The notes under the pieces: model-generated | Seen by the model: only the letters and a program-made list of their open reading frames with translations | Databases searched by the model: none | Told to the model about the DNA's origin: nothing | In this document: positions 19,476 to 36,471 of the stretch, in pieces | Layout: each line of letters opens with the position of its first letter | Position numbering within the stretch: the stretch's first letter is position 1 | Made by a program: the position numbers and the translations under genes | DNA from: an uncultured Gemmatimonadales bacterium | GTDB taxonomy: Bacteria; Gemmatimonadota; Gemmatimonadetes; Gemmatimonadales; GWC2-71-9 | DNA: 64,000 bases | Reading direction: 5' to 3' | Assembly (NCBI GenBank): GCA_963739455.1 | Contig: CAVUAK010000001.1 | Location: forward strand, 1,760,001 to 1,824,000

Positions 19476-20748
19476 CTAGAAGAACAGCATCAAGCCAACG
19501 GCGCCCTGGTTGCCCTTGGCGACGGTCTCGCTGTTCGTGTCCGTGCCAGTGTAGGCCTTGCTGGCGAAGTTCGTGTACTCAGCCACGAACCGGAGCGACT
19601 TGGTCCAGTGATACGTGAACTGGCCAACCCACGCGTTGCGGTTCGCGAACTGCCCAGCGCCGCCGAAGATGTCGGCCTTTTCGTCATCCGTAAGGTGCAG
19701 CGAGTTCTGGCCATAGCTGGCGCCAAGGCTCACCTTGCCGTTCGGGAGGGTGTACATCGCCTGAACGATGAAGCCCTGCGAGCTGCGGGCGTTGCCGAAG
19801 TCATCGACACCATCGCCGATGATGCCGCCGCCGATGAAGGCGTCGCCCTCGAACGTGCTGCCGAGGCCGCTGGCCAGGAAACCGGACGCCATGATCGAGA
19901 AGCCGGAGATGTCGAACTTGCCACCCAGCGCGAGGCCGGTGGTGCTGATGCCCGGGTTGTCGACGCCATCGGGAACGGCCGAGAACTCCTGCACATGGCC
20001 GTACATACCGTCAACCCAGACGAGAACGGTGTTCTTGGTGTTCTTCATCTTCGGCTTGAACGTGATTTCCGTCTCGAAGCGCGGAATGTCGCCGTAGGAG
20101 TACGGTGTATCGCTGCTGGCGCCGGTCGTGGTCGGCTCGAACACGCCGAACGAGATCTGCGCCGTCTTGCCGGCCGGCGAGGAGTACGTGAACTGTCCAC
20201 GGAAGTCCGTGTACAGGTAGCCGTAGCCGATGCGGCCGAGGGCCGTGCCACGGAAGCCCGATGTTCACGCCTGCGCCGAACAGGGTCATGTCGGTGAGGA
20301 TCGCCTGGCGCTCGAAGAGGCCAAGTTCCTTACCGGCGAGAATCTGACCCCAGGTGCCACCGACGGTCAGGTACACCTGACGCATATCGATCTGGGCGCC
20401 GGCGGCGTCTGTGCCGAAGCTGGATGCGACATTGCGACCGGCGGACACCTGCGGAGCGAATCCGAAGTGAATGCCGAGGTCGGTGTTGCCTTCCTTGCCC
20501 TTCGCTTCGAACGTGAAGAAGGCCGGGAGAAGGCCGGTGCCGATACCGTTCAGCTTGCCGGACGTTGAAAAGTTGCCACTGCCATCGGTATCCAGCGACG
20601 AGTTCGTCGTGTAGATCCAGAACGCGTTGACGTTGCCGGCAAACGTGGCGCTCCAGCCATTCGTCATCTGCATGGTCAGCTGGGCGTCGGCGGTATTCAC
20701 CGCGCCCACGAGCGCGAGTCCCGCCAGAACCAATCCGAGACGCTTCAT
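19476..20748 (-). CDS. Outer-membrane porin (frameshift near 20255)
   Basis: Signal peptide ending ADA-Q, IDMRQVYLTVGGTWGQILAGK, beta-strand pattern, terminal Phe; AAGGAG RBS. Confidence 0.8.
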
Positions 20749-21062
20749 AGACTCCTTCCCTCACTGTTGAGTGATCGTGCGGAAATCATTTTACTCCTTG
20801 ACTGCCCGTACATTTGCCCTCGTTACCCAGTCGCGCCATGGCAACTTCGGCGCCGGGGACCCAGGACCCTGCTGTTCAGTTGCTTGACGTCAACACCTCG
20901 GCGACAACCTCCTGATGAGAGGACGCCGCGCCGGAACGCCCGAGGACCAGTGGGCGCTCGCGACCGGCAAGCGGGGACGTGGTGCAATTGGATGCGAGTT
21001 GAGGCGGAAGCGGGAGGGAGACGAGGTCGAAGGACCGGGAATTCAGCCCAGGCCAGCAATTA

Positions 21063-21112
21063 TTCCAATCCACGCATACCGTCCGGCAGGGCCGGACGAC
21101 GCGGGATTGGAA
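21063..21112. other. Long intergenic inverted repeat / RNA hairpin upstream of the porin
   Basis: TTCCAATCC...GGATTGGAA outer stem enclosing CGTCCGGC...GCCGGACG inner stem. Confidence 0.6.
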
Positions 21113-21408
21113 CACTGGTACCTGTGTCGGCTAAAGCCCATTCAGCTCGCTCCGGTTGCCGCTTACGGCCCGAAAAGTGGCGAAGACCAATAACTGCAAA
21201 ACATTCAATTACAATGACTTGGAAAGCTGTCACCATATGCGCGACGCGTCAGGAATTGGACGTCGGCGCCGGCCGTAACTGCTAGCGAGACGACGCTGTC
21301 TCGTTGTACCACCATGACTTACCGCCTTCCAAAATGGCACAGAGCGCTGTGGCGTCAAGCCCCCCGGGCCATCCGGGCCGCCGCGACAAGCTCTGGCGGC
21401 ACCAAGAG

Positions 21409-21557
21409 TTAGCGGAAAAGGAGCGCCGCTTTCTTGAGCGTCATCCAGACTCCCCACAGCATCGGGACCCCCACCGCGACCCACGCCAGCGCCACCACGA
21501 ACCCAGCTCGTGCTACCCGTTGCACGCTCCTCAGCCGTCAGGCTGCGACTCAGTCAT
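21409..21557 (-). CDS. Small single-TM protein of about 48 aa associated with OFA-family MFS transporter; absent from ORF track, two indels
   Basis: MTESQP...VVALAWVAVGVPMLWGVWMTLKKAALLFR*; start overlaps MFS stop. Confidence 0.75.
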
Positions 21558-22993
21558 TGTGCCCCCTTTGCGGCGCGTTGCCGCCAACCGGCGTGCCCTG
21601 ATCGGGCAAGTAATACTTTGGGTTAACAGGCCGGACCGCCAGGTTGCAGAAGAACCCGATCACCAGCAGCGCCGGCGAGGACGTACATCGTCACGTTGTA
21701 GGCGTCAGCCGGCGCCACCCCCCGCGCCAGCTGGAACTCGCGGATGGTGTTCACCAGCCACGGGCCCAGCAGCCCCGCCACCGACCAGGCGGTCAGCAGC
21801 CGGCCGTGGATCGCACCCACGAACTGGGTGCCGAAGATGTCCGCCAGGTAGGCCGGGATGGTCGCGAATCCGCCGCCGTACATCGTCAGGATGACCACGA
21901 AGATCGCCACGAAGGCGGGCAGCAGGTTGAGCCGGCCCGCGGTCGGCACCAGCGCGTACATCGATCGCGCCAAGCGCGAAGAAGATCATGTAGGTCCGCT
22001 TCCGGCCAATCGCGTCCGACAGCGATGCCCAGCCCAGCCGGCCGACGATATTCGCCAGGCTGAGGAGGCCGGTGAAGCCGGCGGCGACACTGGCGACGTC
22101 GAGCCGCTGCTCGGGCGTCAGTTGGGCCAGCGCACCGGGTACGCCGATCAGTCGTCCGCCAAACATTTCCTGGATGAGCGGCGACGCCATGCGACAGCAC
22201 GCCGATACCGGCGCTGACGTTGAGGCAGAGCACGCCCCACAGCGCCCAGAACTGCGGCGTCTTCCACGCAACGTCCACATGGACGTTGTGCGTGGTGACC
22301 ATCGACCGCGCCTCGGGCTTCGGCGTCCAGCCTGCCGGCTTCCAGTCGGGCGCGGGGATCCGGTAGCCGAAGGCTCCGGCCAGTCATCGCCAGGAAATAC
22401 ACCATGCCAAGCACCACGAACGTCTGCCACACGCCCACCGACGTCGGCGTCGCGAAGTGCCGCATGAGCCGGTCGCCGAGCGGCGCGCCGATCATCGCGC
22501 CGCCACCGAACCCCATGATGGCCATGCCGGTCGCGAGGCCGCGGCGGTCGGGGAACCACTTGATGAGCGTGGAGACGGGCGAGATGTAGCCCAGGCCCAG
22601 GCCGCACCCGCCGATGACACCGAGCCCGAGCCAGATGAGCCAGATCTGGTGCGAGCGCGCGCCGGCGGCCGCGATGAGGAAGCCGCCGCCCCAGCAACAG
22701 GCCGCCGCCACGCCGGCCTGCCGCGGGCCGACGCGCTCGAGCCAGCGACCAAAGACCGCCGCCGACGATCCCAGGAAGAAGATGGCGATGGAAAACGTGA
22801 CGACGACCGTGCTGAGCTTCCAGTCGTCCGGCGCCGGCTGCGTGATGCCGATGGTCTGCGTCAGCGGCTTCCAGAAGACGCTCAACCCGTACGCCATGCC
22901 GATCGACAGGTGAATGGCGAGTGCCGCAGGCGGCACCAGCCATCGGTTGAATCCTGGACCGGCAATCGTGCGCTCTCGGGACAAGAGACCCAT
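21550..22993 (-). CDS. OFA family (oxalate:formate antiporter-like) MFS transporter, frameshifted
   Basis: NRWLVPPAALAIHLSIGMAYG, LGYISPVSTLIKWFPDRRGLATG, MYGGGFATIPAYLADIFG. Confidence 0.92.
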
Positions 22994-23042
22994 CGAGGCT
23001 CCGGATGTTGACGGGTGATCGCGAGTGGTGAGGCTGGTCAAG

Positions 23043-24262
23043 CTAGGTGATGGTCCGCGCCACCGCTACGGGGCGACCGCCGGTACTGGCTCGGCGAGGA
23101 GGCAGGTCCACCTCGCGAGTGAACTCCGCCACCAGCGCCTCATGCTGGGCGCCGGTGGCGGGGCCGTAGAACCCCGCATGCACCTGGCGCACACGGCCGT
23201 CCCGGCCGATGAAGATGGTCGTGGGGAACGCGGTGAAGCCCTCCAGTTGCGGCAGCGTGGCCGCCGCGGCATCGACGTCGTTGGTTCCCGCCAGCAGGAG
23301 TGGGAAGGGAATGTCGAACTTGTCGCGATAGCGACGGACCAGCGCGCCGTCGACCGCGGTGTCGCCGGACACTTCGTAGGCCAGTCCCACCATCTCGAGC
23401 CCAAGCGCGTGACGGGAGCGGTAGAGGTCCACCAGCGCCGGCGCTGCCTCGTGACAGGTGGGGCACCAGGTCCCGAACGCATCGACCACGAGCACCTTGC
23501 CCGCGGAACTGCGGATCGTCGCTCTGCACCAGCGTTGCCGTTCACGTCGCGAAAGGCGAAGCGGAACGGCGTGGTCGTATCCGCTCGTGTCACCTCGGTT
23601 GGCAGCTTGAGCGGCGATGGCCCCTGCGCGCGCACCGCAACGAATGGAGTCTGCGCCTTCAACCCCGCGTGAAAGGTGCCGCGCAGCGTATCACCAACCA
23701 GTCGACCCGCGAGCAGGTAGACGAACGACCCGTCGAACCGCGACAGCGCGAAGCTGTCGCGCGTCGCTTCGCCGGAAAAGTGGCTGTAGTCTCCCGAGTT
23801 CCCGATGATCGTCCCTTCCAGGCCGGCGGGGCCATTGCGGAACTCGAAGATCCGCGGAGTGTCCCCCACGGTCCCGCGGAACCACGCGTACCAGCGACCG
23901 GCGAGCCACGCGGGCGCGGCGGACACCTTCCATTGTCCACGTGAGGCACGGAACGGAATGACGCGCGGCCCGCGATTGCCGACGTTCCGGTAGCAGCCTA
24001 CCAGCGAATCGCCGCGCAGCACTGCTGTGATGCCTGCGGCGTAGTCCGCGAGCTCGAAATGGACCGAGTCACCCAGGACGCGGACCGACGAGAACGCGTC
24101 GCACTGCTGCCCGTTGCAGAGCCGCCCCGAGAGTCCCGCGCCTTCCGCCGTGACCTCGATCCGGAACTTGAGCGTGCCGCCCACGAGGTCGAGTGTCGCG
24201 CGCCATGGGCCGGCGAGCGACGGGGCAAGAACGCCTGCCATGGCGATGAGCGGCAGGAGCAT
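23043..24262 (-). CDS. Exported TlpA-family thiol:disulfide oxidoreductase with long N-terminal beta-rich domain (frameshift near 23520)
   Basis: Signal peptide; FGTWCPTCHE CxxC, FPTTIFIGRDG. Confidence 0.85.
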
Positions 24263-25077
24263 TACGGCTCCGACCCCTGATAGCGCTCTCCCGCTTCGAT
24301 CTTGCCCGTGATCGTATTCCCGGGCCACGGCGCCGGACACGGGTACACTGAGCTGTACGCACAGAATGGATTGCGGGCGCGATTGAAGTCGAGCCGGTAT
24401 CGGCCCCCGGCAATGGGATCGAGACTCACGAACCGGCCGGCGGGATATGAACCCTGCCCGCTCGTGCCGTCGCGAAAGTAGATCTCGAGTTCGCTCTCGT
24501 CTTCACTGGCCCCGGGAAACCGTCGAACCCGGAGCGACACCGTCTTGCCGTCGCGCACGACGATGACCATCCCCGCATCATCCGCGAGTGCTTCGATCCC
24601 GTCCGGCCCCAGGAACAGCGCCGACTGGCGTTGCGCCGGTGGCGTGAGCGTCACCGTGTCGATGGCGGCGCGCGCGTACGGGAAATACGCCGGCGCGCGC
24701 GCATCGTGAGGAGTACCGAACACCAGGAGGGTCGCCCGCTCGATCGGGCCGGTGGCCATCAGCCGATAGTTGCCGAGGGGCACGGTTCGATTGCGAGGAA
24801 GGGTCCGGGCGGTGCCGGCGGAATCAAGGGTGATGCGGCCGCCCGAGGCAGCGACTCCGACTGCGCCGACACCCGTCAAGGGGATATCGCTTCCTGGAGG
24901 CCCGAGGGTGATTCCAGGACCGATGCGCTGCAGCGCGACCGCGGCAAACGGGGAGGTCGGCCCGCTCGCCAGCCAGGCGGCGAAGTCCGCCCGCTCACGC
25001 GCAAGCTCCGCCGGAACCTGTGCCGCTACCTGCGGTGCCCACAGCCCAATCGCGAGCAGGAAGGAGCGGCTACGCAC
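24262..25077 (-). CDS. DUF1684 domain protein, exported
   Basis: FRDGTSGQGSYPAGRF, LDFNRARNPFCAYSSVYPCP...AGE. Confidence 0.88.
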   Translation of the reverse strand: MRSRSFLLAIGLWAPQVAAQVPAELARERADFAAWLASGPTSPFAAVALQRIGPGITLGPPGSDIPLTGVGAVGVAASGGRITLDSAGTARTLPRNRTVPLGNYRLMATGPIERATLLVFGTPHDARAPAYFPYARAAIDTVTLTPPAQRQSALFLGPDGIEALADDAGMVIVVRDGKTVSLRVRRFPGASEDESELEIYFRDGTSGQGSYPAGRFVSLDPIAGGRYRLDFNRARNPFCAYSSVYPCPAPWPGNTITGKIEAGERYQGSEP

Positions 25078-25858
25078 CGGACAGCTTGGCGACCAGGTAG
25101 ATCGCCGACGTCGGTTGCGGCGACCCACCGAGCGGTTCCTCGGTCACGGCGGCAGCGGTTACTGCGGCACCAGAGGGCACCTGGATCGCCTCGACCTGCG
25201 CGCGGCCGTCTGCTTCCGGCCGGAAGGTGATCGAGGGGACCGGCTTCCCGTCCTGGATGAACCAGAGCTGATACGCGCGGTCCGCCGGCAGGGCCTTCAC
25301 ACCGAAGGAATGGATGATCGCGGTGTTGCGCTTCCGGTCCCAGAACAGCTGCACGCCAGGCGCCGGGTCGCCCGTTGCGGTGAGCTGGTACAGCTCTATC
25401 CCGGGTGCGAGGAGGGCCTTCAGCGTACGGTCCCGGTTCGCGATGAGTGTGTCACGACTTGCGAGCGCCGTGTCCCGCTGGGCCAGCATCGCATCCAGCT
25501 GGTCGAGCTTGGCGCCAAGCCGCGCGCGACCCGCTCCCATCCATGCGGCCACGAGCAGCGACGCAGCCAGCGCCCACGGCATCCAGGCCGGGCCAGCCCT
25601 CCGGAGCGGCGTGACGCCGGCTTGGCGCCGTGGCGCACCCGCCACGACCCGGGCGCGAAGTGCGTCGGTTGGTGCCGCGGCCGCCGGCTGGCCAAGCGCC
25701 AGCAGGGCGGCGACCTCGCGATACTCCGCGACCTCGCGCGCCAACCCGGCGTCCCTCGCGAGCAATGCCTCGAACGCCTTCGTCTCCGCGTCATCGAGCG
25801 CGCCAAGCGCGTAGGCCGCGGCCAGGTCCTGGGGCGTGCCGAACTCGGCGCCGCTCAT
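25070..25858 (-). CDS. Anti-sigma factor, RskA family
   Basis: LAAAYALGALD, TM WALAASLLVA, coiled coil, YQLWFI...AVTEEPLGGSPQPT. Confidence 0.9.
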   Translation of the reverse strand: MSGAEFGTPQDLAAAYALGALDDAETKAFEALLARDAGLAREVAEYREVAALLALGQPAAAAPTDALRARVVAGAPRRQAGVTPLRRAGPAWMPWALAASLLVAAWMGAGRARLGAKLDQLDAMLAQRDTALASRDTLIANRDRTLKALLAPGIELYQLTATGDPAPGVQLFWDRKRNTAIIHSFGVKALPADRAYQLWFIQDGKPVPSITFRPEADGRAQVEAIQVPSGAAVTAAAVTEEPLGGSPQPTSAIYLVAKLSGA

Positions 25859-26451
25859 GCGAACCTCTCGTAGAAGTACGGCTTGAGGGACTCGCGCAAT
25901 TTCATCATGCCGAGTCGCACGCGGGTCTTCACCGTGCCCAGCGGCTCGTTCAGCCGCTCGGCGATCTCACTGTGTGACAATCCCTCGAAAAAGGCGAGCT
26001 CGATCGCCGCGCGCTGCGGAGGTGAGAGGTCCGCCAGCGCCTCAGCCACGCGGCGCTCCCGCTCCCCGGCCTCGACCGCGGCATCGGGCCCCGCCATCGG
26101 CGCGCTCATGCCCAGCGTGCGCTCGGGATCGCTCCGTTGCGCCGTGTCGGTAATGCGCTCCCGCCGCGCGCGCGCGCGCACGAAGTCGAGTGCGCGGCTC
26201 CGCGTCATCACGGTGAGCCACGCGGCCACGCTGCCTCGGCCCGACTCGAACCGGCCCGCGTCTCGCCACGCCTGAGAGAACGCCTCGGCCACGACCTCCT
26301 CCGCATCGCCTTGCTGCCGCACGATGCGATATGCCACCGCGTACATCATCTGGCCATAGCGGTCATAGACGGTGCCCACGGCGCGCTCATCACCGAGCGC
26401 AGCCCGCGCGAGCAGTTCGGCGTCGGTCACGCCTCCGGCTCCTCCGCTCAT
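25855..26451 (-). CDS. ECF RNA polymerase sigma factor, SigK-like
   Basis: DAEEVVAEAF, GSVAAWL...RSRALD, LAFFEGLSHSEIAERLNEPLGTVKTRVRLG. Confidence 0.92.
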   Translation of the reverse strand: MSGGAGGVTDAELLARAALGDERAVGTVYDRYGQMMYAVAYRIVRQQGDAEEVVAEAFSQAWRDAGRFESGRGSVAAWLTVMTRSRALDFVRARARRERITDTAQRSDPERTLGMSAPMAGPDAAVEAGERERRVAEALADLSPPQRAAIELAFFEGLSHSEIAERLNEPLGTVKTRVRLGMMKLRESLKPYFYERFA

Positions 26452-26536
26452 GCCGAGCGGGGAAACGGGACAGGGAGCACCAGCGTGTCGATCATTGAAG
26501 TGGAGTCTACCACACGCGGGTGCGGGGTCCAACACG

Positions 26537-26971
26537 CTATTTCAGTTCCTTCGGCGGGTCACCATTGGAGAAAACCATCGTGGTGGCATGCTCGTCGATC
26601 ATGGCGCGCAGGAGATTCACCTGGTCGTGGTATCGCTCCCAGAGCATCGCCAGTTGCACGTGTGCGCCGACGAGTCCGCCCCGCACCGTTCCGCGAAACG
26701 TCACCTGCGTGAGATCGCCGTCCTGCACGATGGTGACCACCTCGAGGGGGATCACCTGGAGGTCTCGGCCAGTGATGGAGACGTGATGTCGCACGTAGGC
26801 GGCGATAGCGCTGTCGCCGCCCGGTGCCACCGCAGCCAGGTCATCGCTGAAGATTCGAACAGCGATCCGTACGACGCCAGCGCCCAGATCCGTTAGTGAA
26901 GCGGAACTGGAGTGAAGCGGATGCGCTCGGCTGGGAGGACCCAGCAGGAGCATCAGGAGCCCGAACAGCAT
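26537..26971 (-). CDS. DUF6702-like exported protein
   Basis: Signal peptide then HPLHSS, VRIFSDDL, DQVNL. Confidence 0.72.
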   Translation of the reverse strand: MLFGLLMLLLGPPSRAHPLHSSSASLTDLGAGVVRIAVRIFSDDLAAVAPGGDSAIAAYVRHHVSITGRDLQVIPLEVVTIVQDGDLTQVTFRGTVRGGLVGAHVQLAMLWERYHDQVNLLRAMIDEHATTMVFSNGDPPKELK

Positions 26972-28158
26972 CAGTGCGTGGCCCGGATGGCCGCGGCGTG
27001 CGCCAGCACGAGCGGATCGCGGATCCCGGTGGCAAGTGCGTGCGGCATCGCCAATCGCGCACCGGCCTCGTCGCCAGTGCGGTGCAGCGCCCAGGCATAC
27101 AGGTCCCAGGCGTAGACATCCTGGCGGTCCTCGAGGTCAATGCGTGCCTGCGTCAGCACCGCGCCGACTTCACGGCCTTCGTCGAGAAGCGCCAGGCTCC
27201 ATGCCCTGTGCCAGGCGCCTGGCTGCGCCTTGATCGCCGCCACCATGGCGTTGATGGCCTCGTTCGCCGCGGTGCTGTCGCCGCGTCCCCGCTCCGCTTG
27301 CGCCAGGAGCGCAAGTGCCGCGGGGTCGAAGTGTGCGTCGAGCGACCGACCGGCGTGGTCGGCGGCGTCGTCCCACCTCCCTCGAGAGACGGACGCCCTC
27401 GCGGCTACGGCATGCAGGCGATAGTCGTCCGGGGCAATGGCGAACCCCCGCTCGAGCGCGGTGCCGCCTTCCCCGGTGCGGCCATAGCGCAGTGCGAACT
27501 CCGCTACCCGCAACTCAAACCATGCGCGCTGTTCGCGTGACAACCCGAACGTCGTCGCAGCGCGATCGCGCGCGTCCAGCAGCAGCTGACGAGCGCCGTC
27601 GAGGTCCCCGTTCACCTCTCGCCAGCGCGCGAGCCGCATCTGGGCGGCAAGATTGGTTGTCGTCCCGATCTGCCTGAAGCGCTGTCCTGCTTCCGGGTAC
27701 CGGCCCAGTTCCAGCAGGATCTCGCCGACCAGGCTCTTGATGGTGAGATCGGTGGAGTCCTCCGCCTCCAGTCGCCCTGCTTCCTCCAATGCCTCACGAA
27801 AGCGGTGCTGTCCCATGAGCGCGTTGGTCAGTACGAGCGCTCCGCCGCGGTTCCGGCCCCGGCGCATGCCGAGCGATGCCCGTGCCTGCTGCTCGGCAGC
27901 CACCAGGTCCTCGAAGCGTCCCGTGGCGCGGGCACGCGCCAGCAGCAGGTTCGCGAGACGGGCGCGATCCCCCGCGCCGTACGGGTCCCCCTCCGTTCGC
28001 CGGGTGAAGAAGGCAATGTCGGCGCTGCGCACGTCCGCCTCCCGCGCCGACTCGGCGTTTGCTTCGGCGCGCGCCCGGTCCACGGCGCGGCGCTCGGTGG
28101 ACCAGCCACCGAGCGCCAGCACGCTGAGCACGAGCACGCCAACCGCAATGCGGCTCAA
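26971..28158 (-). CDS. Tetratricopeptide-repeat protein, N-terminally anchored
   Basis: ARARATG, HRFREAL, LLELGRYPEA, DLYAWALHRTG helical repeats. Confidence 0.82.
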   Translation of the reverse strand: MSRIAVGVLVLSVLALGGWSTERRAVDRARAEANAESAREADVRSADIAFFTRRTEGDPYGAGDRARLANLLLARARATGRFEDLVAAEQQARASLGMRRGRNRGGALVLTNALMGQHRFREALEEAGRLEAEDSTDLTIKSLVGEILLELGRYPEAGQRFRQIGTTTNLAAQMRLARWREVNGDLDGARQLLLDARDRAATTFGLSREQRAWFELRVAEFALRYGRTGEGGTALERGFAIAPDDYRLHAVAARASVSRGRWDDAADHAGRSLDAHFDPAALALLAQAERGRGDSTAANEAINAMVAAIKAQPGAWHRAWSLALLDEGREVGAVLTQARIDLEDRQDVYAWDLYAWALHRTGDEAGARLAMPHALATGIRDPLVLAHAAAIRATH

Positions 28159-28724
28159 TTCGGCGTTCCCAGATAGGGGAACGTGCTGAGGAACTGCGAA
28201 TCGTTCGCCACGTTGTCCGTGGTGAGCGCTTCCTTGCCTGCGGCTCCCGCCGGGTCCGCGCCGAACGGGTCACCGAACACCGCCAGCAGGGCGAGGTCGG
28301 TCACGTCGTCGGTCAGCTTCCGCCCGCCCCAGCCGTTGGAGAACGGTGCGAGTGGCAGCCAGGTCAGCCAGCCGGCGGTGGCGGGGTCCTTGTCGGTCTG
28401 CACGATCAGCACGTCGGGCAGCAACGCGCCCGCGAGCACGCTGATGTACGCGGGGTCGCGGCCCGCTACCGTGGCGATGAAGTTGGCGATTTCCGGTCCG
28501 ATCGTGGCCGGGTCATCCTTGGGTGCGATGCTGCCGTGCACCGGGTGACTCCGCTTCGACAGCAATACTTCGCTGATGAGCGGATTGCCCAGCCGCTGGA
28601 TCTGGTTGTACATGCGGGTCGTGGTGGGCGCGGTGCCATTGTCGTCGCTGCACGCGGACAGCGTTGCCGCCGCCGTCAGCGCCAGGATGGCAAGCCGCGG
28701 GGCGAGGTGGAATCGTGAACGCAT
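28155..28724 (-). CDS. DUF4331 family lipoprotein (C-terminal-half type)
   Basis: Lipobox LSAC; QIQRLGNPLISE, LLPDVL, GGRKLTDDVTD, FPYLGTP. Confidence 0.82.
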   Translation of the reverse strand: MRSRFHLAPRLAILALTAAATLSACSDDNGTAPTTTRMYNQIQRLGNPLISEVLLSKRSHPVHGSIAPKDDPATIGPEIANFIATVAGRDPAYISVLAGALLPDVLIVQTDKDPATAGWLTWLPLAPFSNGWGGRKLTDDVTDLALLAVFGDPFGADPAGAAGKEALTTDNVANDSQFLSTFPYLGTPN

Positions 28725-28750
28725 GATGTGAGTTCGCTCCAAGGTGATGG

Positions 28751-29488
28751 TCACCGGCTGATGGTGCCCCAGATGCCGAGCTTGCCGGGCTGGCCATTCT
28801 CGATGAGGCTCGAGGGAAGTTCCACGACGATCGCAAGCACGTTGAAGCCGTTCACGTAGTTGACGGCCTGTCCGGCCGGGCGGAAGTAGAAGGGCGGTGA
28901 CGGGTTGGCCGGCAGCGCGCAGGGCGCGGATAGCGCGCCCCCCGACGGCCTGCGATCGGGCAGGATGCAGAATGCCGCTTCGAGGTCAATGAAGAACGAG
29001 TCATCACGCGGGCCGGCGAAGACCTGCGTGCTGCTGGTGCTACCGAGCGTGGTGTTGATCGTGCCGGTCACTGTGGGAGACGAGGTTGCCACCTCGTTCA
29101 TCATCGCGCCGACGACCGGGGGATCCACTGGTCCCCGGACCTCGACCTTCTGTGCTGCGCCGGAACCGCTGAACGACACCTGCACCACCTTGTCCTCGAT
29201 TGCGTCGCCATTGTTGTCGATCTTGAACTGGTAGAGAAGGTTCGGGTCGAAGCTCGCCCCCGGCGTCTCGGCCGGTGTCAGGAAGGCGCGGGTATTCATC
29301 ACGAGCACTATTCGCCCGGGCTGCGAGCCGGGAAAGACGTAGACATCGGTGAGGTCCTGCTTGGGATTGAGTTCCACTTCGGCGGTGTCCTGATGATCGG
29401 ACGCGACCGCGAGTCCTGCAACGCCGCTGGCGACGAGGAGGGCGATGCCGGCGAGCCATCGCCGGTGGTGCAACGGGCCTGGTGACAT
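28751..29488 (-). CDS. DUF4331 family exported protein (N-terminal-half type)
   Basis: AVA-SDHQD, DLTDVYVF, YQFKIDNNGD, FAGPRDDSFFID, NVLAIVVELP. Confidence 0.85.
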   Translation of the reverse strand: MSPGPLHHRRWLAGIALLVASGVAGLAVASDHQDTAEVELNPKQDLTDVYVFPGSQPGRIVLVMNTRAFLTPAETPGASFDPNLLYQFKIDNNGDAIEDKVVQVSFSGSGAAQKVEVRGPVDPPVVGAMMNEVATSSPTVTGTINTTLGSTSSTQVFAGPRDDSFFIDLEAAFCILPDRRPSGGALSAPCALPANPSPPFYFRPAGQAVNYVNGFNVLAIVVELPSSLIENGQPGKLGIWGTISR

Positions 29489-29536
29489 GGGACGTCCTGT
29501 TCCGTGGATGGGCGGAGTCGTGCGCGAACGCCCTTC

Positions 29537-29604
29537 TACGCCGGACCAGTCGAAACTGGATGTACCAGCTGGGCCGAACCATCCAAACAGGATGCTGCGA
29601 CGTA
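29537..29604. promoter_or_regulatory. Back-to-back ECF-type promoter motifs
   Basis: Minus CATCC(29562-29558)-17-CGTA(29540-29537); plus CATCC(29580-29584)-16-CGTA(29601-29604). Confidence 0.65.
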
Positions 29605-29675
29605 GATCCTGTGTTGTTTGCGGAAAACCGCAGGCGCGCGGTACGTTATCTCCACCAACATCATGAGGCCCCCTG

Positions 29676-31955
29676 ATGTTTTCAGTTCGGATGGCAGCTT
29701 CGCTGGCCGTAGGCGCGTTTTGCGCGCTGGTTTCGCTTCCACTGGCGGCACAGTCGACGCGCGAGGTGCGCGGCACCGTGCTCGGCACCGGCGACGGTGC
29801 GCCGCTCCACGGTGCGTCGGTTCATCGCGTTGCCTCGACGACCCCCGCCGTTATCGCCAACGATCATGGGCGATTTGCCATCACGGTTCCTGCCACCGAG
29901 GTACAACTGGTGGCTGTGCGCCTGGGCTTTGCCCCCGACACGATGCTTGTTCCGGCCGATCGCAACGAAGTCACTTTCAATCTCCACGAAGCGACCCTCG
30001 AGCTCGATCCGCTCGTCGTCGCCGCCGAGCCGGCATACTCCGCCGCTTCGTCCACTACCATCCGCGAACTTGACCTTGCGCTGAGACCGGTTGCCTCGGC
30101 GCAGCAACTGTTGCCGCTCGTGCCGGGATTGTTCATTGCGCAGCACGCCGGCGGTGGCAAGGCGGAGCAGATCTTCCTCCGCGGCTTCGACGCCGACCAT
30201 GGCACCGATGTCGCCATCAACGTGGATGGCACGCCGGTCAACATGGTATCCCACGCGCATGGCCAGGGGTACGCCGACCTGCACTACCTCATTCCGGAGG
30301 TAGTCGAGCAGATGAATGTGCGGAAAGGGCCGTACGCTGCGCAGGATGGCGACCTCGCCACGGCGGGGGCCATCGAGTTTCGCACCAAGGACCGCCTGCT
30401 TGGGAAGGCGGAAGTGCGCGGAGGAAGTTTTGAAACGGGCCGTGCTCTCGCGCTGATTCCGTTTGGTGGCGACGCCACGAAGTTCGGTGGCTACGCGGCT
30501 GGTGCCTATAGCCAGACCAACGGGCCGTTCATCGCGCCGCAGAACTTCAAGGCGGGGAATGGCATGATCCGCATGACTGCGCCGCTGGGCCGCAACACGC
30601 GGCTGACATTCACCGGATCCGGGTACGGCGCGTCATGGGAGGCCTCGGGGCAGATCCCTTCGCGCGCGGTGAACGACGGCAGCATTCCCCGCTTCGGGGC
30701 GGTCGACGCGACGGAGGGAGGAAACACCCATCGGTATGAGGCGAGTGTGGCGATCGGCGGCGAGGGATCAGGCGGATCGCAATGGAGCGCGCGCGTCTTC
30801 GGGGTGAACTACTACCTCAACCTCTTCTCGAATTTCACGTTCTTCCTGGTCGACTCAACCAACGGCGACGGCATCGAGCAGCGCGATGACCGCATGCTCT
30901 ACGGCGCGCTGGGCTCTTACGAGCGCCCCACGCGGTACGGGTCAGTCCGCGGCAACCTGGCGCTCGGCGTCACGCTGCGCATGGACAACGCGGAGGTGGC
31001 CCTGTTCGACCAGGTTGCCCGCGCCCGACTCGACACCCGGATCGCCAACAACATCAACCAGCAGAACGGTGCCGTGTGGGCCCGGCAGAACCTTGCCTTC
31101 GGCCAGCGCACCACGCTCCAACTCGGCCTCCGCGGTGACCTTTTTCACTTCGATGTAAGTCCCGACAACTCCTTCCCGCCGGGCGCCGAGCCACCGGCCA
31201 GCGGCACCTCCACGCTTGGCCGCATCAGTCCCAAGGCCAACCTGACCTACGAGGCGGCGCGCTACACCACGCTCTACGCGAACTTTGGCATGGGTTTTCA
31301 CTCAAATGACGCGCGGGATGTGGTCACGGCGTCCAACGAGGCCGCGTTGCTCCCGAGAGCCACCGGCACCGAACTCGGCGTGCGTCAGTCGTGGAAGGGT
31401 GGGAGCGTCGCGGTCGCGGGGTGGGCGCTCTGGATCGAGAGCGAGTTGGCCTTTGTGGGCGACGAGGGTGTCACCGAGCTCATCGGGCCAAGCCGGCGCA
31501 TCGGTCTCGATATCGAAGCCCGCCAGCAGATCCTGCCGTGGCTCTGGGCCGACCTGGACCTGAATTTTGCCCACGGCGTACTGACGGACGAGCCGGAGGG
31601 TGCGAATGAAATCCCGCTGGCCCCGAGGTTCACCTACGTAGCCGGAATCAGTATCCGCAACCTCGGGCCGGTGAGCGGAGGAGTACGCGTCAAGCACATG
31701 GGCAGTCGCCCTGCCATCGAGGACGCCAGCGTCACCGCCCTGGGCTTCACGGTAACGCAACTGTTCGCGACCGTCGATATTGGCCACGCACAGGTGTTTG
31801 CGAACGTGGACAACCTGTTCAACGTGGAGTGGAACGAGGCGCAGTTCGCGACGACGTCGCGTCTGCAAGGGGAGCCGAACGGGGGAATCACCGACCTGAA
31901 CTTTACGCCCGGTTCCCCGATCGCCGTGGTCGCCGGTTTCCGCTGGATCTTCTAG
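29676..31955 (+). CDS. TonB-dependent receptor with N-terminal carboxypeptidase-regulatory-like domain
   Basis: QHAGGGKAEQIFLRGFDADHGTD, VSHAHGQGYAD plug; NLFN; terminal Phe. Confidence 0.92.
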   Translation: MFSVRMAASLAVGAFCALVSLPLAAQSTREVRGTVLGTGDGAPLHGASVHRVASTTPAVIANDHGRFAITVPATEVQLVAVRLGFAPDTMLVPADRNEVTFNLHEATLELDPLVVAAEPAYSAASSTTIRELDLALRPVASAQQLLPLVPGLFIAQHAGGGKAEQIFLRGFDADHGTDVAINVDGTPVNMVSHAHGQGYADLHYLIPEVVEQMNVRKGPYAAQDGDLATAGAIEFRTKDRLLGKAEVRGGSFETGRALALIPFGGDATKFGGYAAGAYSQTNGPFIAPQNFKAGNGMIRMTAPLGRNTRLTFTGSGYGASWEASGQIPSRAVNDGSIPRFGAVDATEGGNTHRYEASVAIGGEGSGGSQWSARVFGVNYYLNLFSNFTFFLVDSTNGDGIEQRDDRMLYGALGSYERPTRYGSVRGNLALGVTLRMDNAEVALFDQVARARLDTRIANNINQQNGAVWARQNLAFGQRTTLQLGLRGDLFHFDVSPDNSFPPGAEPPASGTSTLGRISPKANLTYEAARYTTLYANFGMGFHSNDARDVVTASNEAALLPRATGTELGVRQSWKGGSVAVAGWALWIESELAFVGDEGVTELIGPSRRIGLDIEARQQILPWLWADLDLNFAHGVLTDEPEGANEIPLAPRFTYVAGISIRNLGPVSGGVRVKHMGSRPAIEDASVTALGFTVTQLFATVDIGHAQVFANVDNLFNVEWNEAQFATTSRLQGEPNGGITDLNFTPGSPIAVVAGFRWIF

Positions 31956-33059
31956 CTACCAGCGCCAGAACCGGTCGGCGCGCAACGCGCCCATTTCGTC
32001 ACGCGGATCGTCACCGTCGAGCAGTTCGCGAATGATGACGCCGGTGATTCCCGCGAGCAGGATGCCGTTCCGCCCATGGCCGGTGGCGTACCACAGCCCC
32101 TTGAGGCGCGGCTCCGGGCCCACGATCGGCCGCCCATCCGGCGACACCGGACGGAGGCCGGCCCAGGTGCGGCGGAGCGTGAGCGACGCCAGCTGCGGAT
32201 ACATCGCGGTGACCGCTGCACGGATCCGCTCGATCCCTTCCTTCGTCGTCGAATGATCGAACCCAGCGTACTCCATCGTCGACCCGATGAGCGCCTCGCC
32301 ATCGCGATACACGAGGTAACAATCGCGGTTGTACATGATCGTCGGCGGTACGCCCAGCGGCCACGGTAAAGCCGCCATCTGGCCCCGCACCGGTTCCACC
32401 GAGAGCGGGCGCGGCATTCCCGCGATCGCGCCCGACCACGCCCCGGCGGCGATGACCACTTCGGGGGCGACGTAAAACTCGCGGCCACGGACGCCCGTCA
32501 CCTGGCCATCCAGCTGCTCGAGAGAAACAACCTGGTCGTGAACCACCACCGCGTCGTGCGCCTTCGCGTCGGCCATCAGTGCCTCAACCAGCCGCACCGG
32601 ATCGAGCGCACCTTCTCGCGGCGCCCACAGCGCGCCGTGACTTGCCCCGAGCCAGGGCCACTGCGCCTTCACCTCAGCGGCGTCGAGCCAGTCGCAGTGG
32701 TGACCCTGCTGCCGCTGCAGGGATACGGACAGGCGGAGGTCGGCGGCCGATGATTCATTGAGGGCGAGGTGGGCGATGCCGCTCTGCCAGAGACCGATGT
32801 CGATACCGGTCGAGGACAACAACTCCGCGGCGAGGAGGCCGTAGCGCTCGCGGCCAGCCAGCTTGAGGTCGAACAGCGGATCTTCGGGAACCGCCTCGAT
32901 CTGGGGTGCGAGCATGCCTGCGGCCGCACGCCACGCCTCGCCGTCGGGGGTGCCCCGGTCCAGAATCAGCACCCGTCGGCCGGTCAGGGCCAGTTCGCGA
33001 GCGCACGCCGCCCCAATGGCGCCGCCGCCGACTACGATAACATCAAATATGGCAGTCAC
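31956..33059 (-). CDS. thiO: Glycine oxidase (ThiO-like FAD oxidase)
   Basis: GGGAIG, AAAGMLAP, PVRGQ, WAGLRP, GHGRNGILLA. Confidence 0.85.
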   Translation of the reverse strand: MTAIFDVIVVGGGAIGAACARELALTGRRVLILDRGTPDGEAWRAAAGMLAPQIEAVPEDPLFDLKLAGRERYGLLAAELLSSTGIDIGLWQSGIAHLALNESSAADLRLSVSLQRQQGHHCDWLDAAEVKAQWPWLGASHGALWAPREGALDPVRLVEALMADAKAHDAVVVHDQVVSLEQLDGQVTGVRGREFYVAPEVVIAAGAWSGAIAGMPRPLSVEPVRGQMAALPWPLGVPPTIMYNRDCYLVYRDGEALIGSTMEYAGFDHSTTKEGIERIRAAVTAMYPQLASLTLRRTWAGLRPVSPDGRPIVGPEPRLKGLWYATGHGRNGILLAGITGVIIRELLDGDDPRDEMGALRADRFWRW

Positions 33060-33071
33060 TTATATTCAGAC

Positions 33072-33096
33072 GAAACTATTTGAAACGTTGGACGTA
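33072..33096 (+). promoter_or_regulatory. ECF-type promoter motif GAAAC-N16-CGTA
   Basis: gaaac tatttgaaacgttgga cgta, 40 bp before ATG 33136. Confidence 0.45.
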
Positions 33097-33135
33097 AGGC
33101 ACGACACCAACGCGACATCCACGGAGGAAAATAGC

Positions 33136-33348
33136 ATGGTCCGGTCACTCTTTGGCTTCTCGATCTTTGCGATCGTTGCCATCATTGCGTCGAAGCTGTT
33201 GTTCGGGCTTCTCGGTGTGGCCATCGGGCTCGCCGGGAAGTTGCTCTGGCTCGCCTTCCTCGGCTGGCTCTTCTACCTGGTGCTGAAGCTCTTCGCGCCG
33301 GAGACGGCGTCGAAGGTCCGGGAGACGATCACCGGGAAGCCAGCGTAA
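33136..33348 (+). CDS. Small membrane protein (70 aa)
   Basis: GGAGG RBS; MVRSLFGFSIFAIVAII...WLFYLVLKLF hydrophobic. Confidence 0.75.
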   Translation: MVRSLFGFSIFAIVAIIASKLLFGLLGVAIGLAGKLLWLAFLGWLFYLVLKLFAPETASKVRETITGKPA

Positions 33349-33354
33349 CCAAAC

Positions 33355-33420
33355 GGGAACAGGGAACAGGGAACAGGACATCGTTCCCTGTTCTCTCACG
33401 TCTTCACGTCGTCACGTCTC
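33355..33420. repeat. GGGAACA heptamer array with inverted copy, followed by TCACGTC octamer array
   Basis: gggaaca gggaaca gggaaca ... gttccctgttc ; tcacgtct tcacgtcg tcacgtct. Confidence 0.75.
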
Positions 33421-33425
33421 GCGCG

Positions 33426-33881
33426 TCAGCGCGATTGCGCCGTCTGCAGCGCGGTGATCGCCCAGCCGTGCCCCGCCCGCTTCGGGACCAGGACCATCAG
33501 TCCGCGTCCCAGTCGCACCTGCGTCTTGTCCTCGGAAAACCAGCGATAGTCGAAGGTCGCCCACGCGACATCCTGCCGTACGTTCACCTCACTCGCGGTG
33601 ACCGCCGACAGGCCACCCGTCTCGACACCTGCCAGTCTCGGGTTGGTGAACCGGGCGGCACCATTCGCAACAACTGAAGCGGACGGCGCAAACAAGGTAT
33701 CAGTCGAGCGGCCACGAGCGTCACCCACCACGACTGCCTCGATAATCAGCGATACATCGTTTTCGGAGTCGGGATTGGCCAGCTGCTTGCTCGGCGCTGG
33801 CACTGGCGGCGCGCTGGGCCCGCAGGCCGCCAGCGTCGCCGCCAGGAAGGCGGCACTCGACAAGCCCCGGAGCCGCCGCAT
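33426..33881 (-). CDS. Hypothetical lipoprotein (possible NTF2/SnoaL-like fold)
   Basis: Lipobox LAAC; DVAWATFDY...GWAITALQ. Confidence 0.65.
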   Translation of the reverse strand: MRRLRGLSSAAFLAATLAACGPSAPPVPAPSKQLANPDSENDVSLIIEAVVVGDARGRSTDTLFAPSASVVANGAARFTNPRLAGVETGGLSAVTASEVNVRQDVAWATFDYRWFSEDKTQVRLGRGLMVLVPKRAGHGWAITALQTAQSR

Positions 33882-34657
33882 CAGGAGACCAGTTCGACCT
33901 CGCGCTCCACGGTGGCCGGACCCTCGACCGGGGGGAGGAAGTGCAGCGAGCCACGCGAGCGCCAGAGCGCCCGGGCCGTGTCCCAGGGACGGAGCCGGCT
34001 CGGCCGGTGCCTGAGGTCGTGGCGCTCGACCGTCGCCACCGTCTCGATGCGGCGCGCATGACGCGCCGCCAGCCCGATGAGCTCGGCGTTCGCCGCCCAG
34101 CCGTCCGTGCGCAGCAGGGGCTCCGGTGCGGTGCGAAGGGCGTTGCGGAGGGTGATGAGCCGGAAGGCAACGAAGCCCGACACGATGTCGCTGACGCCCG
34201 GCACACCGACGCGACTCCGCAGCAGGACTGGCGCCCAGCGTCGCAGCATGCGGAGGCCGCGGGACGGCTCGCCGACGGCGCCGCCCTCGCCAACCACCAG
34301 GTCGGCCCCGCCATCGATGTGGCGCACCAGGTCGGGGATGAAATGGGGCCCATGGGCAAAGTCGGCGTGCATCATGATGGCGCAGTCGCGCTTGGGGCGG
34401 TCGGTGCGCTCCACTGCCAGGCGCAGCAGGCTTTCCACCGTGCGCGCATAGCCCCTGCGCTCCTCTGAGCGGATGACCGTGAGCGGAAGCGCGCGGGTGT
34501 AGGGCTGGAGGATCTCACTGGTGGCATCGGTGGATCCGTCGTCGCCCACCAGGAGCTGGTACTCGCGCTCGAACGCGCTGAACACCTGCCGGACCTTCCA
34601 GAGAAGAAGCCCCACGGTCGGGGCCTCGTTGTGGCTCGGTATACAGACGTAGATCAT
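33881..34657 (-). CDS. Glycosyltransferase family 2
   Basis: IPSHNEA, DDGSTDAT, DIVSGF. Confidence 0.88.
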   Translation of the reverse strand: MIYVCIPSHNEAPTVGLLLWKVRQVFSAFEREYQLLVGDDGSTDATSEILQPYTRALPLTVIRSEERRGYARTVESLLRLAVERTDRPKRDCAIMMHADFAHGPHFIPDLVRHIDGGADLVVGEGGAVGEPSRGLRMLRRWAPVLLRSRVGVPGVSDIVSGFVAFRLITLRNALRTAPEPLLRTDGWAANAELIGLAARHARRIETVATVERHDLRHRPSRLRPWDTARALWRSRGSLHFLPPVEGPATVEREVELVS

Positions 34658-35723
34658 GCGGAAACCGGGTTGATGAGAGCCGAACGATATACGCCGATCG
34701 TGCGCTCTGCCATCCCGCCAACATCGTAGCCCTGGACTACCCGCCGTCCCGCCTCCGCCATGGCCGCGGCGGCCGCGGGGTCGCGCAGGACACGCTCGAT
34801 CTCGCGCGCCAGGGCCGCAGCGTCGCCGTTGGGCACCAGCGCCCCGCTCCCCGAGGCCAGCAGCTCAGGCACGCCGCCAACGGCCGTGGCCACGATGGGG
34901 CGGCCGATGGCCATCGCGTCGAGCAGGGTCGACCCGAGGCCTTCGCTCGTGGCGGCAGACGCGACCAGCGTGGCCTCCGCGATGAGCTCGTCCACGTAGT
35001 CGATGTGGCCGAGGAAGGCGACGCGCCGTCCCAGTCCGGCCTCCTCGGCGTGCCGCACGAGCCGGGCGTGTTGCGGTCCGTCCCCCGCCAGGGCCCAGCG
35101 AACCTCTGGCATCCGGGACGCCAGCAGTGCGGCCGCCTCGATGAGGGTGTGATGGCCTTTTTCCGGCGTGAGTGCGGCGATGCACGCCACCAGCGGGGCA
35201 TCGGCCGGCCACCCACGCGCCGCCCGCACGTTCGACGGGATCGCCGCCGCGAGTCTCGCGGACTGGAATGCCGTCGGGAATGACCGAGATGCGGTCGCGC
35301 CTCACACCGCCGCGAACCAGCGCCGCCTCTACCGCACCTGAAATGGCGATCACGCGCGACACATTCGTCCAGGTGCCGCCTGCGCGCACCGGGAACACGA
35401 CGCGCCGCGTCGCGACTACAGGATTGGCGCCGCTCCAAAGTGCCAGCCGGAGCGCATGGCCGTCGTGGGCGTGTACCAGTGCCGGACTGGCCCGCCTTTC
35501 GCATATAATGCCATAGAGCGCCCGTGGATCGAGGCCCAGGTCCCAGTCCACCTCGATCACTCGCACACCAGCCACGCTTGACGCGGCGCGCAAGCTCGGA
35601 TCCGCGGCAAGTCAGCAGTGACTGCTCCAGCGGGTGCGCGGCCAGCGCCCGGGCCAGGAACCAGACCTGTCGCTCGCCGCCGCGCCACTCGCGGCCCGAC
35701 GCCACGTGCAGCACCCGAATCAC
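34654..35723 (-). CDS. Glycosyltransferase family 4 (frameshifted)
   Basis: WRGGERQV, EKGH, EGLGSTLLDAMA.G.PIVATAVGGVPE. Confidence 0.9.
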
Positions 35724-35752
35724 GAGTTTCGCCTGTAGTGATGGGGGAACCG

Positions 35753-36471
35753 ATGATACGAGCGGATACCAGGAGTCGCCTCGGCTCCACGATCTCCACC
35801 TCATGCTCCTGCTGCTCAGTCGCGGGTCGGCGGTTCGCCGGCGCGCCCTCGAGCGTCGCCTGGAGCGTGAGGGCCCCGACGTCCTGCTCGACCATCCCGA
35901 ATTGCCCGAGCGCCTTCTCGCGGTGCGGACGCTGCTCGTGCCGTCCGACCACCTCTTTTTCTACGTGATGGTACGGCACACCCTGCGGCGGAATGGCGTC
36001 GATGATCGTGACCTCTCCGACTACCTGTCGGCGGTCCTCATGACGTTCGGTCACCGGGACCGCGCGTGGCGCATCGACTGGCACGATGATCAGCGGCATC
36101 ATTATCTCGTGGACATCCTGCAGGACCTCGAGGCCACCAGTGGCGAGCGCCGGTTCCGGGTACTGGTGCACCTCGGCAACTACGCGCTCTGGCTGGCCGG
36201 GCTCTTTCCCGACTACATCGCGGCACGACAGCTCCGGAAGGGCGGGCCCGCCGTCAGCTACTACGAATCCCTCGGCAGTCGCGGCTATGCGCTGGCGTCC
36301 GATCATGCGCTGGCCGAGTCGTCGGGCCTCGAGCCGATCCTGCGCCTCGCGGCCGGGCGATTCCCGGCGGTGCGAAGTGCGCTCAATGCGGTGAGCGACC
36401 AGGTGTTCTTCCCGGTTGGCGTGAGCGCCCTGCGGCTCGAGCGCCAGTTCGGCGGCAACCTGCTTCAGTAG
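35753..36471 (+). CDS. Hypothetical protein (frameshift near 35790)
   Basis: MIRADTRSRL... joined to HLGNYALWLAGLFPDYI...YYESLGSRGY. Confidence 0.7.

Follow-up and report, generated by a model that had tools for sequence, protein, structure and literature searches.

Which system is encoded where a TonB-dependent receptor (TBDR) gene lies back to back with a run of DUF4331, tetratricopeptide repeat (TPR), DUF6702, sigma factor, RskA, DUF1684 and TlpA-like genes? This question is raised by a 64,000-nucleotide stretch of DNA (the window; G000:C1:1760001-1824000, contig CAVUAK010000001.1) from an uncultured Gemmatimonadales bacterium, whose genome assembly (G000) is 83.7% complete. All eight minus-strand genes and the divergent receptor reported by the initial annotation are there, and their Pfam identities hold (two DUF4331 genes, TPR, DUF6702, an extracytoplasmic function (ECF) sigma factor, RskA, DUF1684, a redoxin domain and a TBDR). 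The locus is composite, consisting of a cassette core and resident neighbours. With moderate confidence, we propose that the core is an ECF-controlled envelope system for the capture and import of a nickel-class metal, most likely nickel, with cobalt or copper possible.

The gene content was compared among 200 other genomes of the phylum and G000; G157 was counted only in denominators of 201. DUF4331 is present in 38 of the 201 genomes, and loci were taken from 35 of the 37 others (the short contigs of G148 and G093 were left out, and some contigs end early). The core proved to be syntenic: of the 35 loci, 34 carry the C-terminal half of DUF4331, 33 the TPR gene, 26 the sigma or RskA gene and 25 DUF6702. 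Other genes at these loci were HupE/UreJ-2 (20), DUF1684 (15), TlpA (14) and TBDR (8). The consensus operon reads DUF4331N-DUF4331C-TPR-hupE-DUF6702 (N and C denoting the two halves), with the sigma and rskA genes downstream, upstream or divergent. In the family-level comparison, in which kin are not independent and G056 is omitted for a HupE match below the cut-off, HupE was found in 26 of 29 DUF4331 genomes compared with 9 of 67 others, and TBDR in 11 of 29 compared with 4 of 67. The top homologous loci carry Gemmatimonadales titles. Outside the phylum, NicO-family permeases take the place of HupE in 7 of the 15 DUF4331-TPR loci listed, and nikR adjoins one of these; of the listed loci titled Armatimonadota, most have no NicO-family permease. 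Decayed cassettes with remnants of DUF4331, hupE or the sigma gene were seen at L226 (G111) and L092 (G146), where G and L numbers denote genomes and loci.

A promoter-like motif is shared among these loci. The motif [ACG]ATCC[AG]-N15/16-CGTA was found upstream of 90 of 108 DUF4331N genes, compared with a mean of 0.47 and a maximum of 3 in shuffled sequences (upstream regions shorter than 200 bases and exact duplicates were excluded from the motif counts). It agrees with the ECF18 consensus as given in the supplement of PMC7826278 and in Table 4 of PMC13492112. In the window, two copies stand back to back, one toward each transcription unit (Table 1); the position weight matrix (PWM) used to score them was built without the window sequence. 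In G094, the operon is in pieces, and each piece carries the motif. Receptor genes unlinked to the cassette provided an out-of-sample test: the motif precedes them in 7 of 8 DUF4331 genomes and in 0 of 7 genomes without DUF4331, which supports a place for the receptor in the same regulon as DUF4331. Taken with the synteny, the shared promoter supports a conserved, ECF/RskA-linked envelope metal module of DUF4331, TPR and DUF6702. Divergent ECF sites in 31 of the 108 loci often face no convincing open reading frame and are read as relics. An outward ECF promoter with no receptor or fasciclin gene after it is kept in the gap between thiO and DUF4331N at L035, L036, L052, L056, L061, L069, L123, L134, L137-L144 and L163; it may be a relic or serve a small RNA.

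The sigma gene is followed directly (+1) by an RskA-type anti-sigma gene, and its putative target promoters are of the ATC(C)/CGTA type, as in groups ECF18 and ECF19. The best PDB sequence match of the protein is SigK (4NQW, E 6e-26), with both cysteine positions replaced and no cysteine anywhere in the protein, and the NCBIfam SigK model scores 141.9 against a cut-off of 226. According to the supplement of PMC7826278, the sigma-4 cysteine pair (redox switch) is defining for ECF18 and occurs in only some ECF19 subgroups; the window sigma lacks this pair of Mycobacterium tuberculosis-type SigK and ECF18. Self-regulation, as originally proposed, survives only through possible read-through, since what precedes the sigma gene is a housekeeping-type site and not an ECF site. 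A -10 element of the TAGACT, TAGAAT or TAGTAT type recurs in 39 of the 42 sigma loci listed. A stock sigma70 and terminator scan returned nothing above chance, with the site at 26504-26532 below its threshold. The scan detected no terminator-like site between DUF6702 and the sigma gene, so read-through from the one into the other is possible.

The same motif lies upstream of 3 of 4 fasciclin genes and 19 of 71 sigma genes. At L067:11520-12113, L125, L188 and L202, a fasciclin gene is found close to the cassette or the receptor, in most cases with this promoter, which echoes the SigK-MPT83 link. In G000, an msrB gene (G000:C3:461498-464098), downstream of a cytochrome b/molybdopterin oxidoreductase gene that looks MsrPQ-like by eye, has a strong ECF site, the third-best in the genome. 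A second SigK/RskA-like pair occupies G000:C1:527794-532144; a Met-rich exported protein is encoded upstream of it, and its variant promoter ends in CGTT. By eye, the pair adjoins CopC/CopD- and di-heme-peroxidase-like genes. This second locus is possibly a copper counterpart, and its SigK-like pair (C1:528339) could account for the msrB motif.

The receptor suggests a link to nickel. Its clade occurs in 22 of the 200 other genomes. Of the seven receptors in genomes without DUF4331, two adjoin nikR and two follow hypCDE, which points to nickel. Three plasmid homologues were also located, two near a HoxN/HupN NiCoT gene (one of them with hydrogenase genes alongside) and one near HupE/UreJ. None of the 38 DUF4331 genomes yielded a NikR match. 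In the incomplete G000 assembly, neither hydrogenase and NikR nor LarA and Ni-SOD were found, the Ni-SOD control having matched nowhere. G000 has urease genes as a candidate nickel sink; the cluster (G000:C1:2111653-2116568) includes a urea transporter-like gene, and no nickel permease was recognised by eye among its listed genes.

The DUF6702 protein also bears on the metal. The initial annotation regarded this family as lacking an assigned function, which was overtaken by a 2025 paper: in its available part, one member is reported to bind Ni in preference to Cu and Co and to have no oxidase activity (PMC12537917); the studied member has a tri-histidine site (His1/28/32). The window protein matches PF20420 at 40.4 bits (cut-off 24) and has, by eye, a His directly after the predicted cleavage site; an HxxH start was found in 51 of 51 cassette copies. 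The window cassette and its closest relatives (L111-L114, L169) carry no hupE; among these relatives, the TBDR is intact at L112, a remnant at L111 and L114, and absent at L113. Six sampled genomes have cassettes with DUF6702 and no hupE (G000, G078, G096, G122, G163 and G186), and all six encode a hupE-M1 peptidase-DUF6702 locus elsewhere, which in G000 is a hupE/ureJ-2-M1 peptidase-DUF6702 operon at G000:C1:789541-792821 (L110:5542-8822). These genomes possibly represent few independent events because four of the six belong to one genus.

The two DUF4331 genes were initially taken as a pair. Two genes there are; however, they are not paralogues but halves of one domain, covering positions 1-237 and 249-421 of one Pfam model. 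Since 104 of 120 longer homologues also match both halves in order, we regard them as one split domain. All 65 split homologues and 110 of the 121 single-chain ones have a His in the third position after the signal peptide (X-X-His), and His32 is the sole His conserved across the family. With cleavage at the putative site, the N-half would begin with a free X-X-His. A lipobox pattern was found in 64 of 65 split C-halves (alignments used 65 rows of the 72 intact triples plus the window, with frameshifted and partial loci left out). The acidic D91-D99 loop resembles a calcium-binding loop.

AlphaFold2 models of DUF4331 reached mean predicted local distance difference test (pLDDT) values of 84.8 and 87.2 (about 87 for the window N-half). 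Foldseek and VIA-align searches with two AlphaFold2 models returned no clear known fold; the single-chain model (P0267) lacks the N-terminal His and is uninformative on that site. The best structural match had a Z of 7.2 (root-mean-square deviation 5.3, 208 aligned), and, with regard to a DOMON/CBM9-like beta-sandwich, DOMON-type chains (Z 4.3-5.8) were at the same level as antibody domains. A PDB sequence search with the DUF4331 profile gave no match at E<=1, and an ESM Atlas search returned only DUF4331 and TPR clusters. The family spans 1,340 clusters at 50% identity, and NicO-DUF4331 and DUF4331-cupredoxin fusions exist. The NicO fusions may be read-through forms because they keep an internal signal-like segment; in P0208, a plastocyanin/azurin-type copper domain is fused to a single-chain DUF4331. 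In the literature searched, which did not extend to supplements of bioRxiv papers and most subscription journals, DUF4331 was absent from main texts and appeared only as a neighbour in two supplements. It has three low-count neighbour rows in the available source data of the anglerase study (PMC12537917) and is given as genomic context of ECF18s13 and ECF214s1, with no function stated in the available parts of the ECF studies (PMC7509140; PMC7826278 supplement).

The modelled complex supports binding of the TPR protein to the DUF4331 N-terminal tail. A three-chain model placed the TPR protein on this tail with a score of 0.83, compared with 0.00 for the best control. Of 157 solved pairs, 116 reached the mark applied, and of 215 mismatched pairs, 2 did so; these counts apply only roughly to this job. 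Among the residues at the modelled interface are 31-42 of DUF4331 and, on the TPR side, the invariant His118 and Trp213; contacts agreed by at least 86% between runs, and the pLDDT of the partners was at least 92. A possible truncation of the TPR C-terminus when hupE was lost was considered and discarded, as equally short TPRs were found with hupE present.

Overall, on the observed gene content, gene split, motifs and co-occurrence and the predicted TPR complex, we provide a putative mechanism in which the metal, the direction of transport, the order of hand-off and the signal are inferred. A housekeeping promoter, recognised by its conservation, would make the SigK-like sigma factor and RskA. 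A periplasmic signal would then allow the sigma factor to fire the back-to-back promoters, one for the receptor and the other for DUF4331N-DUF4331C-TPR-DUF6702. Judging by its clade, the receptor may carry a metal complex over the outer membrane, where the DUF4331 N-half could bind the metal by its free X-X-His terminus in the manner of amino-terminal Cu/Ni-binding (ATCUN) sites. The lipoprotein C-half would complete and tether the DUF4331 domain, and the gene split would free an N-terminal amine while still permitting a lipid anchor. The membrane-anchored TPR protein is predicted to grip the DUF4331 tail, plausibly to load or unload it, and DUF6702 might pass the metal to a HupE/UreJ-2 permease. 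In most relatives, the permease is encoded in the operon; in G000, it would be supplied in trans from the hupE-M1 peptidase-DUF6702 locus.

A more specific version of this mechanism is a tentative possibility that we consider doubtful at present. DUF4331 and TPR would form a new periplasmic capture-and-release device in which the ATCUN tail holds nickel and a TPR clamp, with its invariant His, straightens the tail and unloads it onto DUF6702 and the permease; the cysteine-less SigK/RskA pair would serve as an extracytoplasmic nickel-status sensor that replaces NikR for the receptor clade. If true, this would provide a candidate signal for RskA-type anti-sigma factors. Independently of this specific version, the analysis proposes a concrete role for DUF4331, in which a metal site that depends on His32 is combined with a TPR partner under a defined promoter, and it ties a receptor clade that elsewhere adjoins nikR and hydrogenase genes to an ECF/RskA switch.

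Several points weigh against the import of nickel by this cassette. The DUF4331N motif count is partly circular, as these sequences also served to refine the pattern, and related genomes do not count independently. Fasciclin and msrB genes share the promoter, which hints at a wider regulon for envelope or oxidative functions. The idea of a link to hydrogenase was discarded, with [NiFe]-hydrogenase in 16 of 29 DUF4331 genomes compared with 32 of 67 others. The absence of NikR has little power, since few genomes of these families have NikR at all (2 of 134 in families f1 and f2). ATCUN sites bind Cu as well as Ni. Anglerase relatives favour Cu. The cassette copy in the window has no permease, and the ECF motif precedes the distant hupE-M1 peptidase-DUF6702 locus in only 2 of 6 genomes (G096 and G186), G000 not being one of them. 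In addition, no HupE match was found in the incomplete assemblies of four DUF4331 genomes (G098, G182, G187 and G120), and conservation in the predicted TPR interface does not exceed that elsewhere in the protein (0.59 vs 0.59). Metal binding, transport and expression are putative for every protein here.

Buffering of metal stress is an alternative that we regard as rather unlikely. The ECF system would answer excess Cu or Ni or oxidative envelope damage, with DUF4331 and DUF6702 as periplasmic sinks and the permeases as exporters. NicO/RcnA-type permeases and HupE might work in either direction here, the fasciclin and msrB genes share the promoter, RpoP, which belongs to ECF18, reportedly influences Ni/Co resistance (PMC7826278 supplement), and single loci (L041 and L049) have a CsoR/RcnR-type repressor or a multicopper oxidase nearby. 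However, the same promoter drives an outer-membrane importer of a clade found elsewhere by nikR, hoxN and hyp, and import during excess is hard to justify.

It is unlikely that DUF4331 is itself a secreted metalloenzyme or metalloprotein, with HupE/UreJ-2, DUF6702 and TPR as its maturation kit. Such a role would resemble the M1 peptidase locus: the trio seen in G000 recurs in 11 of 20 other DUF6702 loci examined, and this arrangement suggests that HupE-2 and DUF6702 may load metal into a secreted client there. Additionally, both DUF4331 halves contain many near-invariant Asp, Arg, Gln and Asn residues, and the TPR protein holds the DUF4331 N-terminus like a chaperone in the model. Nevertheless, only the one His is family-wide, Pfam recognised no catalytic motif in DUF4331, and the receptor is co-regulated.

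The initial annotation had counted DUF1684 and TlpA as members of the module. An integrated metal/redox module of all eight genes and the receptor, in which TlpA reduces Cys pairs of DUF1684 or DUF4331, would draw on the full gene order in 14 of 35 loci, on the possible read-through from DUF6702 into the sigma gene and on a thiol relay proposed for the Cx7C motif of a Haloferax DUF1684 protein (available part of PMC9426492), but it is very unlikely given that 18 DUF1684-TlpA loci without a cassette nest among cassette-bearing lineages, that the ECF motif occurs in 0 of 71 DUF1684 upstream regions, that DUF1684 and DUF4331 co-occur weakly in the families (18 of 29 vs 28 of 67), and that 42% of 65 split homologues and 0% of 121 single-chain ones have the DUF4331 Cys pair, which is lacking in 58% of the former and all of the latter. 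The 18 loci, which read thiO-DUF1684-tlpA with no sigma gene or cassette between, are among the 46 of 96 family genomes that encode DUF1684 (the DUF1684 locus of G093 was left out). Intermediate orders also occur: thiO-sigma-rskA-DUF1684 (L082, L096), thiO-TBDR-DUF1684 (L077) and a decayed copy (L092). In a 49-row tree of DUF1684 and TlpA, which is midpoint-rooted, weakly supported at deep branches and built with frameshifted or partial loci left out, cassette-less loci nest by cassette-bearing ones with FastTree support of 0.99-1.0 (L075/L067, L096/L035 and L082/L055). This pattern suggests that the cassette was lost repeatedly and that the DUF1684-TlpA pair remained. The TlpA protein matches PF08534 above the cut-off and has a CPTC motif, as expected of a TlpA/ResA thioredoxin. 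It plausibly acts on the Cx7C of DUF1684 as a separate unit; the two may form a resident thiol pair that is cotranscribed with the cassette by read-through. Many relatives have sulfocyanin (SoxE)-domain genes in convergent orientation to tlpA (L056:3292-3816 and relatives), and elsewhere in G000 a pyrroloquinoline quinone dehydrogenase-like gene lies between two such genes (G000:C1:1404143-1407139).

The coordinates of the features are collected in Table 1. The five overlapping junctions first reported (28158/28155, 26971, 25858/25855, 25077/25070 and 24262) are correct; the run is not seamless, as a gap of 85 bp (26452-26536) with a promoter-like site precedes the sigma gene. All products but the sigma factor were initially described as apparently exported or membrane-anchored. 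Export signals were judged by eye and by hydropathy over 17 residues (threshold 1.6), which both DUF4331 halves, TPR, TlpA and TBDR passed and DUF6702, RskA and DUF1684 failed; the DUF4331 C-half passes through an internal segment and not through its signal. Compared with three close relatives, tlpA has two single-base insertions, near 23535 and 23502, and reads as two pieces. These are probably assembly errors because the neighbouring major facilitator superfamily (MFS) and porin genes are broken too. The frameshifts in the porin-like gene (19476-20748) and in the oxalate/formate- or lactate-type MFS gene (21623-23041) fit assembly errors across the window. An Rfam search of window positions 20000-36000 gave no match.

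Table 1. Features of the DUF4331 locus and its flanks, in window positions.
Feature	Position	Strand	Basis
TonB-dependent receptor, nickel-associated clade, variable regulon member	29676..31955	+	Pfam PF00593/PF07715/PF13715
ECF18/19-type promoter-like site, toward receptor	29580..29604	+	PWM score 17.3, tenth among the 99 G000 candidates
ECF18/19-type promoter-like site, toward DUF4331 operon	29537..29562	-	PWM score 24.5, highest among the 99 G000 candidates
DUF4331 N-half with signal peptide; ATCUN-like start of the mature protein predicted at Ser30-Asp31-His32; acidic loop D91-D99	28751..29488	-	Pfam profile
DUF4331 C-half; own lipoprotein signal, lipobox Cys	28155..28724	-	Profile positions 249-421
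TPR protein; N-terminal hydrophobic segment, invariant His118 and Trp213	26971..28158	-	Pfam, complex model
DUF6702 metal-binding protein; predicted mature N-terminal His (HxxH)	26537..26971	-	Pfam PF20420
Housekeeping (sigma70-like) promoter-like site ahead of sigma gene	26504..26532	-	-10 hexamer conservation
SigK-like ECF sigma factor without the SigK cysteine pair	25855..26451	-	PDB match SigK 4NQW
RskA-type anti-sigma factor	25070..25858	-	PF10099, PF22618, NF052375
DUF1684 (Cx7C) protein, resident neighbour, not a cassette member	24262..25077	-	Pfam, synteny, tree
TlpA-like thioredoxin (CPTC), N-terminal extension, frameshifted in assembly, resident partner of DUF1684	23043..24262	-	Pfam, synteny
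thiO glycine oxidase, resident flank marking the cassette site	31956..33059	-	TIGR02352 above cut-off

This analysis contributes the HupE-less variant, a test of the promoter at receptor genes unlinked to the cassette, and the separation from the module of DUF1684-TlpA, which is better treated as its own thiol pair. The parts of the system resemble anglerase/HupE systems and ECF18/19 regulons. In common with the anglerase (Ang-1/Ang-2)-HupE/UreJ-2 systems and the DUF6702 "metal sequesterase" described in the available part of PMC12537917, the cassette combines an exported metal binder with an N-terminal His and a HupE/UreJ-2 or NicO permease of the Ni/Co/Cu class. In contrast to those systems, DUF6702 is a separate gene, and a split DUF4331, a TPR partner, a TBDR and ECF control are added. 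The fusion of an N-terminal-His domain to HupE/UreJ-2 is not seen here: the window operon lacks HupE, and relatives have separate genes. The DUF4331 N-half may resemble ATCUN proteins in its predicted free N-terminal X-X-His after signal cleavage, but its motif would belong to a conserved, putatively beta-sandwich domain in the periplasm that has a TPR protein as its dedicated partner. The receptor belongs to the same clade as the nickel-associated TBDRs near hoxN/hupN, hyp and nikR, with 32-34% identity to the two plasmid copies compared; unlike those, the receptors in DUF4331 genomes have an ECF promoter and not nikR or hydrogenase neighbours. Finally, the regulatory part resembles SigK-RskA (ECF19) and the ECF18 regulons in the available parts of PMC7509140 and PMC7826278, with the sigma gene followed by RskA, an ATCC/CGTA-type promoter, and fasciclin and MsrB (SelR) as neighbours or targets. 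It differs from them in that the sigma gene has no ECF site of its own and in that the targets are a metal-capture cassette and a TBDR, which are given no function in those papers.

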